The notes below the pieces were generated by a model. That model made no database searches. It saw only the letters and a list, made by a program, of their open reading frames with translations, and was not told the origin of the DNA. A DNA stretch of 24,506 nucleotides from an uncultured bacterium (GTDB taxonomy: Bacteria; Actinomycetota; Thermoleophilia; BMS3ABIN01), in contig CAJVWY010000001.1 of the NCBI GenBank assembly GCA_913009925.1, forward strand, positions 1 to 24,506. The letters are read 5' to 3'. The translations under genes were made by a program, and so were the position numbers. Shown here piece after piece: positions 9,191 to 12,948 of the stretch (position 1 is its first letter; each line of letters begins with the position of its first letter).

Positions 9191-10213
9191 CTATCGATGG
9201 TTCCCATCCCCGCCGTCGGGCAAACCCCCCGAGGCTGTGGCTCCCAGGGAAAGGTACGCGGGAAAGGACAGGGACGGCAGAAAGCGCGCGGCGCTGGCGA
9301 TCATGCCCGCATTGTCCGTACAGAGGTCGGGCGGCGGTATGCGCAGCGGTATCCCCTGCCCTTCGCAAGCGGCTGCCAGCCGGCGCCTCAGTTCCGAATT
9401 GGCGCTGACACCGCCGGACAGGCAGACCCGCCGGCAGCCCCGGGTCCTGGTAGCGGCCATCGTCTTTTTTACCAGGGCGTTGACCACAGCGGACTGATAG
9501 CTGGCGGCGATATGGGCGCGCGACCGCTTCACCTGTTCGGCGCCGGCGTCCCTGAGATAATAGTAAAGGGCGGTCTTGACTCCGCTGAAGCTAAAATCGA
9601 GATTATCGGGCCGGTCCAGTCCCACGGGGAAAGAGATGAAGCTGCTGTCTCCATCCGCGGCGAGCCGGTCCAGCTCAGCTCCCCCCGGATAGCTCAGGCC
9701 CAGCAGCCGCGCTCCCTTGTCCAGAGCCTCTCCGGCGGCATCGTCCAGGGTCCGCCCCAGTACCTGATGGGAACGGTGACCGGTGACATGGACCAGCGAT
9801 GTATGTCCGCCGGAAGCCACCAGACAGATGAAGGGCGGTGCGAAAGGGTCCGGCTCCAGGTAGTTGGCGGCGATATGCCCTTCCAGGTGGTTGACCGCCA
9901 CCAGCTCCTTTCCTGAGGCGTATGCCAGGGATTTGGCCGTGGCTACTCCCACCAGGAGCGCGCCGATGAGCCCGGGGCTGGTGGTGACGGCCACCAGTTT
10001 GATCCTGCCCAGGTCTACCGACGCGCCGCTGAGCGCCTCGGCCACTACGGAATTGACCAGGCGCAGGTGCTGCCTCGATGCAACTTCGGGAACCACCCCG
10101 CCGTAGCGGGCGTGGAACTCGTCCTGGGAGGAGACCACGTTGGACAGCAGTTTGCCGTCTTCCAGGACAGCGGCGCAGGTATCGTCACAGGATGTCTCGA
10201 TCGCCAGGATCAA
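9191..10213 (-). CDS. tsaD: tRNA N6-adenosine threonylcarbamoyltransferase
   Basis: Motifs LAIETSCDDT, YGGVVPEVASRQH, VNHLEGH, SGGHT, DDAAGEALDK, FSFSGVKT, CTDNAGMIA. TTG start at 10213 overlaps the rimI stop, with a GAGGA RBS. Confidence 0.97.
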   Translation of the reverse strand: MILAIETSCDDTCAAVLEDGKLLSNVVSSQDEFHARYGGVVPEVASRQHLRLVNSVVAEALSGASVDLGRIKLVAVTTSPGLIGALLVGVATAKSLAYASGKELVAVNHLEGHIAANYLEPDPFAPPFICLVASGGHTSLVHVTGHRSHQVLGRTLDDAAGEALDKGARLLGLSYPGGAELDRLAADGDSSFISFPVGLDRPDNLDFSFSGVKTALYYYLRDAGAEQVKRSRAHIAASYQSAVVNALVKKTMAATRTRGCRRVCLSGGVSANSELRRRLAAACEGQGIPLRIPPPDLCTDNAGMIASAARFLPSLSFPAYLSLGATASGGLPDGGDGNHR

Positions 10214-10668
10214 GCCAGCATGTCCTCGGAATCCCGCCACATGATGAGCGCGTCCTCACCGTTGTCGTTGTAATATCCCTTGCGGATACCGGAACAGATA
10301 AAACCGAAACTCTCGTACATCTTGATGGCGCCGCGGTTGGATTTCCTGACCTCCAGGCAATAGCCGCGATGAGGCTCGCGCCCGGAAAGGTCGAAGAAAT
10401 ATTCCAGCAGGTCGGTGGCGATGTAGTGCCTTTGGAAATCCTGGTGGACCGCCAGGTCCAGAATGTGCCATACGCCCACGAACTGGGTGACCACCAGGTA
10501 GCCGACGACCCGCTCGGGCTTTTTCGCCACCGCCACCAGGCAGATGCTGGCGTCGTTGGCCAGCTGGGAGATGAAAGCGTTGAGCGACCATGGCTTGGGG
10601 AAAGCCGTCTCCTCGATCTCGATCACCGCCTTGAGGTCGGACATGCGCATCCGCCTTATGTCAACCAT
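10210..10668 (-). CDS. rimI: RimI-family GNAT N-acetyltransferase
   Basis: IEETAFPKPWS, LEVRKSNRGAIKMYESFGF, RKGYYNDNGEDALIMW; canonical position between tsaB and tsaD. Confidence 0.93.
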   Translation of the reverse strand: MVDIRRMRMSDLKAVIEIEETAFPKPWSLNAFISQLANDASICLVAVAKKPERVVGYLVVTQFVGVWHILDLAVHQDFQRHYIATDLLEYFFDLSGREPHRGYCLEVRKSNRGAIKMYESFGFICSGIRKGYYNDNGEDALIMWRDSEDMLA

Positions 10669-11390
10669 GGCAGCCTCTTCCTCAGGAGGATGGTCCGGTC
10701 CGCGTCCGGCTCGCGAATATATACAGGCAGGGCGGTGTCCATGCCCTGGTGGTGCTCGGCTCCCCCAGGCCCGGTGAGCCTTATATGGCAGGAGGCGTTG
10801 ATGATGTTGCGCGGGTCGTCAGCCGCCAGCAGGCGCAACCGTCCGCCGACATCGTCCAGGCGTTGGTGGTATGCCAGGGCGCCGTCGCCCCCTGCCAGCA
10901 ACCGGCCCGTCACCTCCGTTGCCCACAGCCTGCCGATATGCTCAGGGCCGAGGCAGGCGATGTCGGAGGCGGGTTCCGGGATGTCGCCGTCACCCAGGCG
11001 GTACAGGCGCGTGAATACCTGGCCGCGCCGGGCGTCGATGAGCGGCAACAGTCCGTCCTCCCCCTCCGCCAGCGCCGGCGCCATTCTCAGGGCCAGCGCC
11101 TGGAGAGAGCTCGAGCCGGAGATGGGGATGTCCAGCGCCTGGGCCAGCGCCCGCCCGGTGGAGATACCCACCCTGAGCCCGCTGAAAGTACCCGGGCCGG
11201 TGCCGACGACGATATGGTCCACGTCCCTGATCCGGAGTGAGCAACGGCCCAGCAGGAGTTCGATCTCGGGCAGCAGAAGTTCCAGGTGCGCCCTGCCGGC
11301 CTTCATGCCGCCATCAGCCAGGATATGGTTACCCTCCCCCAGGGCGACGCTCAGGGTTTCCGTGGCGGTGTCAATGGCCAGTGTCGGCAA
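10656..11390 (-). CDS. tsaB: t6A biosynthesis protein TsaB
   Basis: Motifs LAIDTATE, H-E-LLPEI, GTGPGTFSGLRVG, IDARRGQVF. Confidence 0.95.
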   Translation of the reverse strand: MPTLAIDTATETLSVALGEGNHILADGGMKAGRAHLELLLPEIELLLGRCSLRIRDVDHIVVGTGPGTFSGLRVGISTGRALAQALDIPISGSSSLQALALRMAPALAEGEDGLLPLIDARRGQVFTRLYRLGDGDIPEPASDIACLGPEHIGRLWATEVTGRLLAGGDGALAYHQRLDDVGGRLRLLAADDPRNIINASCHIRLTGPGGAEHHQGMDTALPVYIREPDADRTILLRKRLPWLT

Positions 11391-11829
11391 ACGATTCCTC
11401 GATAACGGTTTTCAGATCGCCGCTGCCGGTGATGCTGATGGAGCGGCTGTTGCGTGAGACATGCCCCATATGGACCTCCACGTCGGGTCGGAACGAGCCT
11501 GCGAGCGGCTCCGGCCATTCCACAAAGGTTATGGCTTCAGGTTCGAAATAAGGCTCCAGGTCCGCGGCGTCATCGCGGCCGAAAGCGGACAGCCGGTACA
11601 GATCCAGGTGGTGCACGGTGACCTCCCCCTTATAGCTTTGCGCCAGAGTGAAACTGGGGCTGGTGACGGGCTCCCTCACCCCCAGCTCCCGGGCCGCGGC
11701 GCGGATGAAAAAAGTCTTGCCGGCGCCCAGCTGGCCGGAAAGGAAGACGATATCGCCTGGTGTGAGCCGGCGCGCCAGTCTGGCGGCGATGGCGGCGGTC
11801 TGTTCTTCGGAGCGGGAGATGGTTTGCAC
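11371..11829 (-). CDS. tsaE: t6A biosynthesis ATPase TsaE
   Basis: Walker A GQLGAGKT, VTSPSFTL, HLDLYRL, FVEWPE. Confidence 0.96.
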   Translation of the reverse strand: MQTISRSEEQTAAIAARLARRLTPGDIVFLSGQLGAGKTFFIRAAARELGVREPVTSPSFTLAQSYKGEVTVHHLDLYRLSAFGRDDAADLEPYFEPEAITFVEWPEPLAGSFRPDVEVHMGHVSRNSRSISITGSGDLKTVIEESFADTGH

Positions 11830-11834
11830 GGCCG

Positions 11835-12515
11835 CTAGAACAGGTCGAGTTGTTCCGGCTCGGATGGGGCCTCCGGGGCCGGTGGCGGCTGCTGCGACTC
11901 GTCCATGGCAGCACCAGGCGGGGGGCTATCCGCCTTACCGTCCAGAAGCTGTGGCAGATGATCGAAGTCCTCTTCCAGGATCCTCAGGTTGGCAGCGGTA
12001 TAAAGGGCGGCCGCCGGATGGAGCACGGGGAACAGGGTGATGCGGCCGCCGGAGCCGGGCAAGGGCTGCGGCACCCCATGAACCCGGGTGATGCCGTCGG
12101 GCTTGCCGCTTAGAAGCTTGGTGGAAAAATTGCCCAGGGTGCATATGACCAGGGGCTCGATGATGGCGATCTGCCGTTCCAGGTAGACGCGGCATTCATC
12201 GATCTCCTCCAGCAGCGGGTCGCGGTTCCCCGGGGGACGGCATTTGAGGACATTGGCGATGTAGACATCGCCACGGGTCAGCCCGATGCGTCCCAGCAGC
12301 TTTTCCAGCAGCTTTCCCGCCTGCCCTACGAAAGGTTGTCCCTGCTGATCCTCGTGATAACCGGGCGCTTCGCCGACGAACATGAGCAGTGCATCGGGAT
12401 TGCCTGAGCCGAACACGATATTGGTACGGCTCCGGGAAAGGGCGCAGCGCCGGCACTGCCCCACCTCGGCACGCAACTCTTCCAGCGCTGTCTTGCTGTC
12501 CCCCACCTCAGCCAC
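11835..12515 (-). CDS. Family-4 (4Fe-4S type) uracil-DNA glycosylase with Pro-rich tail ending QLDLF
   Basis: CRRC, VFGSG, FVGEAPG, PFVGQAG, NVLKCRPPGNRDP, HPAAAL. Start GTG at 12515 or 12506, coupled to the upstream small gene's stop. Confidence 0.93.
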   Translation of the reverse strand: MAEVGDSKTALEELRAEVGQCRRCALSRSRTNIVFGSGNPDALLMFVGEAPGYHEDQQGQPFVGQAGKLLEKLLGRIGLTRGDVYIANVLKCRPPGNRDPLLEEIDECRVYLERQIAIIEPLVICTLGNFSTKLLSGKPDGITRVHGVPQPLPGSGGRITLFPVLHPAAALYTAANLRILEEDFDHLPQLLDGKADSPPPGAAMDESQQPPPAPEAPSEPEQLDLF

Positions 12516-12732
12516 AGGATGAACAGGACGATTTGGAGCAGGAACCGCAGCTGTCGGCACCGGCGCTGGCAGGGGTGTTACCGGAATCGGACTTGAAAGA
12601 AAAGCTGGAGATGATCCTCTCCACATCATGAGAGTCGCAGTGACAGCAGGCGATCCCGTCACTTTCGCTGGCGCGGACCAGCTCTTCGAAACGCTTGCCG
12701 CATGATTTGCATGTAAATTCGTAGATAGGCAT
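12508..12732 (-). CDS. FmdB-family zinc ribbon protein with extra Cys-rich tail
   Basis: MPIYEFTCKSCGKRFEELV...CCHCDS...CGSCSKSSCSSCG; GAGGGGG RBS. Confidence 0.88.
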   Translation of the reverse strand: MPIYEFTCKSCGKRFEELVRASESDGIACCHCDSHDVERIISSFSFKSDSGNTPASAGADSCGSCSKSSCSSCG

Positions 12733-12754
12733 GTGCTGGTTCCCCCTCGGGAAA

Positions 12755-12806
12755 ACTCTAAATTAAGCAAAACAGCTTTGCAAGACATCGCCGCCGCTGC
12801 TATCCT
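12755..12806. promoter_or_regulatory. Candidate bidirectional promoter with a shared palindromic -35 (TTGCAA)
   Basis: TTGCAA at 12778-12783. Plus strand: N17 then TG-c-TATCCT (12801-12806). Minus strand: N17 then TAGAGT (12760-12755). Confidence 0.55.
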
Positions 12807-12948
12807 CATAATCTCCAGTATATATGTATGCAGCCGGGAGGCAATGACCGTTTTACGGTTGCCGGCGCCGATGTCTGGTATCCCCCGGGGAACTGGAACG
12901 GAGGTAGAGAACCTGTCTGTTCAAGCTGATGACATCCGCAGTCAAAGC

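Follow-up and report, generated by a model that had tools for sequence, protein, structure and literature searches.

The window analysed here, the whole 24,506-nucleotide stretch of contig CAJVWY010000001.1 from an uncultured bacterium of the class Thermoleophilia, carries on its minus strand a gene for a family-4, iron-sulphur (Fe-S) uracil-DNA glycosylase (UDG). The gene occupies positions 11835..12515 and comprises 226 codons and a TAG stop; it is defined by its translation, by matches to Pfam PF03167 and NCBIfam TIGR00758, and by a database protein that is 99% identical and likewise 226 amino acids long. Its product falls into three parts. The catalytic domain (residues 1-191; 11943..12515, minus strand) is delimited by conserved columns, by an AlphaFold2 (AF2) model and by alignment to solved relatives. 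It is followed by a Pro/Glu/Ala-rich linker (residues 192-221, LDGKADSPPPGAAMDESQQPPPAPEAPSEPE; 11853..11942, minus strand), which is coil in the model and contains no conserved columns. The protein ends in the pentapeptide QLDLF (residues 222-226; 11838..11852, minus strand), identified from the sequence and its conservation, which carries the free C-terminal carboxylate and is predicted to bind the beta sliding clamp, DnaN. The 3' end of the gene on the minus strand reads GAG CCG GAA CAA CTC GAC CTG TTC TAG, with the stop at 11835-11837, and the peptide ahead of QLDLF is GKADSPPPGAAMDESQQPPPAPEAPSEPE. An earlier note on this DNA had described a linker followed by QLDLF and a stop at 11838-11852, and both the coordinates and the preceding peptide are exact when the minus strand is read.

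The protein scored 204 bits against TIGR00758 (cut-off 125.3) and 113.6 bits against the UDG family PF03167 (E-value of 1e-32; cut-off 24.3), and a Pfam search at E-values up to 10 found nothing besides UDG in it. The archaeal equivalog NF040953 was matched at 209 bits, under its cut-off of 250, and the protein is therefore not filed there. In two homologue alignments of 32 and 103 sequences (A1 and A2, respectively), the cysteines C21, C24, C92 and C108 were invariant or at least 90% conserved; we take these to be the 4Fe-4S ligands, from what is established for the Thermus thermophilus enzyme UDGA. Motif A, GEAPG (with the glutamate at E49), contributed the invariant columns G48, E49, P51 and G52 in both alignments, and motif B, HPAA, contributed H166 and P167. 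The AF2 model, computed from the 103-sequence alignment, has a mean predicted local distance difference test score (pLDDT) of 91, a predicted template modelling score of 0.83 and alternating strands and helices, as in the alpha/beta UDG fold that the model predicts. Block means of the pLDDT were at least 94 over residues 11-190, and the final helix ends at residue 191.

The nearest solved structure is that of the Sulfolobus tokodaii UDG (4ZBX; 9e-49), the sequence match being to query residues 10-190 only. Other solved relatives are Thermotoga maritima TM0511 (1L9G/1VK2) and T. thermophilus UDGA (1UI0), and the matches to this group range from 9e-49 to 2e-38 over residues 10-190. These solved family-4 enzymes share with the window protein the catalytic domain, its GEAPG and HPAA motifs and all four Fe-S cysteines; however, they are 192-205 amino acids long and end with the domain, and both the long linker and the QLxLF tip are missing from them. 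Judged by its sequence, the window protein is an active-looking family-4 (Fe-S) uracil-DNA glycosylase.

Beyond the domain, residues 192-226 were modelled as coil with a pLDDT of 58-72, compared with at least 94 for the domain, which bears out the proposal that the motif sits on a flexible terminus. The linker at 192-221 is probably disordered according to this model. Among the homologues it is unalignable, contains no conserved column and varies in length between roughly 10 and over 200 residues. The tip behaves differently from the linker in alignment A2: Q222, L225 and F226 each reach at least 90% conservation, a level that no column of the linker attains. When the 120 best homologues (57-99% identity) were drawn from 5.8 billion proteins, 118 ended in Q[LM]xLF, with the 30-40 residues ahead of the motif unalignable; the remaining two look truncated.

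The same end was seen in a survey of the class, which covered 40 genomes from 7 families and 21 genera together with the window's own draft genome (G000), 41 in all. A family-4 match above the cut-off was present in 39 of the 41, and all 30 of the best-scoring family-4 loci taken from the 40 class genomes end in QLxLF, or in QLxLW in one family. Clustering at 50% identity gave a broader sample, whose best 150 representatives include many fragments; the strict motif ends 33 of these, and about 10 more have the motif followed by 1-3 extra residues (e.g., QLDLFG). The earlier note had proposed a survey of orthologous C-termini for QLxLF, and nearly every member of the orthologous group in Thermoleophilia, Acidimicrobiia and Chloroflexota proves to have it, next to a hypervariable linker.

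When the distinct tails were pooled, the motif lay within three residues of the end in 222 of 362, and at the very end in 206. The first position was Gln in all 222. The second was Leu in 202 and Met in 19, the third was occupied by twelve different residues, the fourth was Leu in 219, and the fifth was Phe in 211 and Trp in 7. The commonest tips were QLGLF (142), QLDLF (27) and QLSLF (13). In the window's draft genome (1.23 Mb, approximately 70% complete), the UDG is the only one of 6638 stop-to-stop open reading frames (ORFs) of at least 80 amino acids to end in Q[LM]x[LM][FW]. A scan of the other long ORFs of this draft for internal QLxLF-like motifs gave only eight matches, none of them obviously in a replication protein. 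Chance occurrence of QLDLF is ruled out by the conservation (118/120 and 30/30) and by the genome-wide ORF scan.

The beta-clamp binding motif is described as Q-aliphatic-x-[L/M]-[F/L], often on flexible termini, with a free third position and with the Gln, Leu4 and Phe5 weighing most (PMC11139829). QLDLF is the strongest consensus clamp-binding peptide, the Escherichia coli DNA polymerase (Pol) II tail, …QLGLF, binds as a peptide with a dissociation constant of 1.7 uM and has been crystallised with its structure solved, and acidic neighbours or a free C-terminal carboxylate favour binding (PMC11139829). QL[S/D]LF had been put forward as the DnaN-binding consensus; QLDLF and QLGLF are both experimentally validated clamp binders (PMC11139829). 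The window tail fits the motif at residues 222-226, and the UDG tails, compared as peptides, match validated clamp binders in sequence and in allowed variation. The PCNA-interacting protein (PIP) box, Qxx[LIM]xx[FY][FY], was not found in the UDG tail, and the clamp of the organism is DnaN and not PCNA.

A dnaN gene is present in the draft genome at G000:C21:8904-10004 (292 bits). The residues that we take to form the peptide pocket of E. coli DnaN (R152, L155, T172, D173, R176, L177, P242, N320, M362, P363, R365 and L366) are identical in the G000 and E. coli clamps. Among the 40 aligned class clamps, 39 keep N320, and each of the other residues is kept by at least 38. Across the window's genome and the 40 class clamps, the E. 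coli pocket-lining positions are identical or conservatively replaced.

The tail was present in 17 of 17 Thermoleophilia sampled (Gaiellaceae, Solirubrobacterales and the cultured Conexibacter stalactiti KCTC 39840), and in metagenome-assembled genomes (MAGs) of other Actinomycetota. It was also seen in Acidimicrobiia (QLDLFS, QMELFG and QLDLFQ), in many Chloroflexota (Chloroflexia, Anaerolineales, Dehalococcoidia, Tepidiformaceae and the cultured Thermomicrobium sp. CFH 73360) and in one Gracilibacteria MAG. Among the named genomes sampled, the motif was not found in Collinsella, Eggerthellaceae, Bifidobacteriaceae or Saccharibacteria, nor in delta- or gamma-proteobacteria, Phycisphaerae, Binatia or archaeal sequences. 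Degenerate tips were observed at six loci (VQGTLFED, TPRLFDPK, EQSHLL, EQPELFA, TSLELFG and QQMDLYS), carried by basal Coriobacteriia, some Acidimicrobiaceae and one Nitrospiraceae MAG; these resemble the motif in decaying or relaxed form.

A tree of 73 rows was built by a quick method from the catalytic domains only. The trait is strongly clustered on it, with 10 changes compared with 24.5 when the labels were shuffled, and none of 500 shuffles gave a value as low. A well-supported clade of 34 rows joins Thermoleophilia and Chloroflexota and includes 30 motif carriers; three of its four non-carriers have a degenerate tip (QLALL, QIRLFD) or a probable frameshift. As a separate observation, an Acidilobaceae archaeon MAG has a family-4 UDG that clusters with this bacterial Chloroflexota/Thermoleophilia clade and ends in …GRSLLDYF. 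In this single sequence, whose placement has a Shimodaira-Hasegawa-like approximate likelihood ratio test value of only 93, the tip looks like a clamp-peptide swap (a PIP-like aromatic pair) after inter-domain transfer.

Many of the class genomes also encode a second family-4 paralogue, which scored 131-173 bits and has a C-terminus of the form …HPAFILRRGG…KKLVWEDMK…. No linker and no clamp motif were found in this paralogue at the 13 loci examined, from 13 genomes, and in one genome (G005) this was the only type of family-4 UDG found. A distant UDG-superfamily ORF of 224 amino acids, at G000:C168:2072-2380, scored 43.7 bits against TIGR00758, below the cut-off, and contains no clamp motif.

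Several observations weigh against a clamp-binding role for the tail. In the syntenic orthologues from gut Coriobacteriia (Collinsella, Eggerthellaceae), the motif is lost or degraded, and it is therefore dispensable in some lineages. The tree of 73 rows requires at least 5-10 gains or losses of the motif. In addition, one lineage has the tips QLPLW or QLKLW instead of …LF, at single loci in three class genomes (family f5) and at two further loci, and a Trp at the terminal position weakened the binding of the internal motif of E. coli Pol III alpha (PMC11139829). No lineage-specific change was found at 28 DnaN pocket positions in the three f5 (QLxLW) genomes.

A search for family-1 Ung (TIGR00628) found it in only one of the 41 class genomes, so that 40 were without a match, as were 33 of the 34 that are of high quality; it was likewise not found in three other motif carriers, namely Thermomicrobium, Conexibacter and an Anaerolineales MAG. 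Because Ung was not found in nearly all of the class or in these other carriers, the tailed family-4 enzyme probably serves these organisms as their principal uracil glycosylase. By analogy, such a role would fit a replication-coupled function like that of human UNG2. Outside the class, Collinsella, which has no motif, has Ung, and Gordonibacter, which also has no motif, was without Ung like the three motif carriers. A complementary distribution of tail and Ung outside the class was considered and set aside as anecdotal, the comparison covering five genomes only.

Other readings of the conserved tip were weighed. The one that survives best, which we nevertheless consider improbable, is that the acidic tail and its hydrophobic tip attach to some hub or partner other than DnaN, as a mimic of the tail of the single-stranded-DNA-binding protein (SSB) directed at SSB-interacting proteins, or to an apurinic/apyrimidinic endonuclease, a ligase or RNA polymerase. 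The tail is indeed acidic before the tip, with Glu commonest at positions -1 and -3, and SSB C-terminal tips bear a superficial likeness to it. However, all five fixed positions agree exactly with the clamp motif, down to the invariant Gln, which is absent from SSB tips. The commonest UDG tips are, moreover, identical to validated clamp binders, and the acidic neighbours and the free carboxylate themselves favour clamp binding (PMC11139829).

A second reading, for which the odds appear poorer still, is that the tip is a C-terminal degron or a localisation tag (membrane or condensate) that sets the abundance of the UDG and does not tether it to DNA. Hydrophobic C-terminal ends can serve as bacterial protease tags, and a second role of this kind would be compatible with the present data. 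Against this, the tip has no likeness to known tags such as the ssrA-type LAA ends, and the strict Q-L-x-L-F, free at its third position, is the pattern for which the clamp pocket selects. The single occurrence of such an end in the draft genome would also be odd for a general degron.

The genes around the UDG bear on a third alternative. Downstream of the UDG, on the minus strand and in the same direction, lie tsaE (11371-11829; Pfam TsaE match), tsaB (10656-11390), rimI (10210-10668; Pfam GNAT match) and tsaD (9191-10240; Pfam TsaD match), so that the downstream operon context spans 9191..11829. The GTG start of tsaE, at 11829, follows the UDG stop after a gap of 5 nucleotides. The order UDG-tsaE-tsaB-rimI-tsaD is kept across Actinomycetota loci (Thermoleophilia, Acidimicrobiia, Coriobacteriia and Bifidobacteriaceae), with or without the clamp motif. 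In three Anaerolineales loci, tsaE-tsaB-rimI was observed just upstream of the UDG. That the motif is a DNA-level by-product of an overlap between the last UDG codons and the tsaE translation-initiation region, or reflects shared ancestry without function, is scarcely credible: the tsaE start is close and this junction is conserved in Actinomycetota, but the motif is kept without a downstream tsaE at eleven loci in Chloroflexota, Conexibacter and Gracilibacteria and is lost in Coriobacteriia where UDG-tsaE-tsaB-rimI-tsaD is intact, which excludes a constraint from the tsaE start; it is the amino-acid sequence that is conserved, in genomes that differ greatly in composition; and ancestry alone is insufficient because the linker adjacent to the motif has diverged completely.

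Descent of the E. coli psi subunit (HolD) from a family-4 UDG was also considered. The E. coli holD gene overlaps rimI, and the rimI neighbourhood is the only one common to psi and the UDG. The idea found no support in a quick test, in which hhalign of the UDG4 profile against a single psi sequence gave a probability of 0.2%.

Upstream of the UDG lies a gene for an FmdB-type zinc-ribbon protein (Zn_ribbon_8) of 74 amino acids (12508..12732, minus strand), identified by Pfam PF09723 at 9e-15. The panC gene lies upstream of the UDG and zinc-ribbon genes and is divergent. The longest-ORF reading of the UDG would begin at an ATG at 12809 and give 324 amino acids (361 from stop to stop); it was rejected, the first approximately 100 codons overlapping the zinc-ribbon gene in another frame. 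This N-terminal extension (12508-12809) is an artefact of ORF calling in high-GC DNA. The start of the UDG is most likely the GTG at 12515, from which the product has 226 amino acids, as do the database homologues. This GTG start overlaps the stop (TGA) of the zinc-ribbon gene by 8 nucleotides (GTGGCTGA). The FmdB-type gene is translationally coupled to the UDG, and is context that stands outside the tethering device. The same FmdB-type gene was observed upstream of the UDG in many Thermoleophilia loci.

Coupling of uracil removal to a sliding clamp is known from other domains of life. Human UNG2 is tethered to PCNA through a PIP box. The family-4 UDG1 of Sulfolobus solfataricus binds PCNA3 (PMC1636371, citing Dionne and Bell 2005). 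The logic in these enzymes is the same as that proposed for the window UDG, a glycosylase being coupled to a sliding clamp via a short terminal peptide. In the window protein, by contrast, the clamp is beta/DnaN, the peptide is QLxLF and not a PIP box, and the binding is a prediction made here; the protein is thus predicted to work like the PCNA-interacting UDGs of the UNG2/archaeal UDG1 type without being a member of that group. It is a well-supported prediction that bacteria have, in this enzyme, a counterpart to PCNA-tethered UNG2 and to the archaeal UDG.

Among bacterial clamp clients, the closest tails are those of polymerases. The E. coli tails include …QLGLF in Pol II, …QLVLGL in Pol IV and QLNLF in the Pol V subunit UmuC, beside the consensus QLDLF (PMC11139829). 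Like the Pol II tail and the consensus peptide, the UDG tips have the identical pentapeptide (QLGLF/QLDLF) at the extreme C-terminus, on a flexible segment. The client in the present case is, in contrast to the polymerases, a DNA glycosylase, a class missing from the partner lists of clamp reviews from 2022 and 2024.

A further parallel is EndoMS/NucS. The actinobacterial enzyme binds DnaN via its last five residues, [E/K]-[L/Y]-[T/R]-L-F, whereas archaeal NucS uses a PIP box (PMC8228993, PMC6159521). Both NucS and the window UDG are repair enzymes shared with archaea that carry a C-terminal beta-clamp peptide in Actinomycetota, in the same phylum and at the same terminal position. NucS differs in being a mismatch endonuclease with a motif that begins without Gln. 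Biochemical and genetic work has established that NucS depends on the clamp, whereas the clamp dependence of the UDG is predicted from sequence.

The mycobacterial base-excision-repair factors Nei2, XthA and LigA have been reported to use the beta clamp (PMC9690074, PMC7530888). These are Actinomycetota base-excision-repair enzymes that work with DnaN, as is predicted for the UDG. They are, however, other enzymes, none of them a uracil glycosylase; Nei2 contacts clamp subsites I and II, and a terminal QLxLF was not reported in the 2022 review.

The literature was searched for earlier accounts of such an enzyme. No paper describing any bacterial UDG as a client of the beta clamp was found in searchable full texts, subscription-only papers being outside the scope of the search. 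The words glycosylase and uracil are absent from the 2024 beta-clamp review (PMC11139829), and the only bacterial base-excision-repair factors mentioned as clamp users in the 2022 review are Nei2, XthA and LigA, all mycobacterial. The statement in the earlier note that clamp tethering was uncharacterised for bacterial family-4 UDGs agrees with the searchable literature, in which no UDG appears among the clients given by the 2022 and 2024 reviews.

Taken together, we consider it likely, with a probability of roughly 0.8, that the enzyme is tethered to the beta sliding clamp through its C-terminal QLDLF on a flexible linker. Tethering of this bacterial UDG to the replisome through QLDLF had been suggested earlier, and is supported by the conservation of the motif and by its flexible placement; on the family assignment, the motif, its conservation, the coil model and the matching clamp, we infer physical binding, its timing relative to replication (post-replicative in the original suggestion) and an effect on activity. 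The QLDLF peptide would insert into the hydrophobic pocket of DnaN that lies between its domains II and III, and the sequence-free linker of approximately 30 residues would join the folded glycosylase to the clamp-docking tip. The tail could thereby hold the glycosylase on clamps at or behind the fork, or on clamps left on the DNA. Such tethering would raise the local concentration of the enzyme on the newly made duplex, where misincorporated dUMP and deaminated cytosine would be excised. The resulting abasic site might then be handed to other clamp-bound repair enzymes. In a lineage that seems to be without Ung, the enzyme would take the role played by PCNA-bound UNG2 in eukaryotes and by the PCNA-bound family-4 UDG in archaea.

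A wider proposal is possible, although the balance of probability lies against it. In Ung-less Terrabacteria (Thermoleophilia, Acidimicrobiia, Chloroflexota and allies), the family-4 UDG might be a constitutive, clamp-riding component of the replisome and a true analogue of UNG2, with an activity, or a choice of strand or timing, that depends on DnaN as in NucS. The tie to replication might then predate the split of the bacterial phyla, the PIP box having been exchanged for QLxLF when the enzyme crossed between domains. Elsewhere, UDGs may be tethered by other routes.

Sliding clamps organise replication-coupled repair, and uracil removal is known to be clamp-coupled in eukaryotes and archaea. 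The lists of bacterial clamp clients that were consulted include polymerases, MutS/MutL, Hda, ligase, NucS and a few mycobacterial base-excision-repair factors, and no uracil glycosylase. The predicted QLxLF-tailed main UDG of large, mostly uncultured lineages would add a new class of beta-clamp client. It would also join NucS as the second case in which an enzyme common to archaea and bacteria has a beta-clamp peptide in its bacterial form and a PIP box in its archaeal form. Inhibitors of the clamp pocket would, in such bacteria, also disconnect uracil repair. Cultured carriers exist in Conexibacter and Thermomicrobium. For the organisms themselves, the tail suggests how bacteria without Ung may handle dUMP misincorporation and cytosine deamination at the replication fork.

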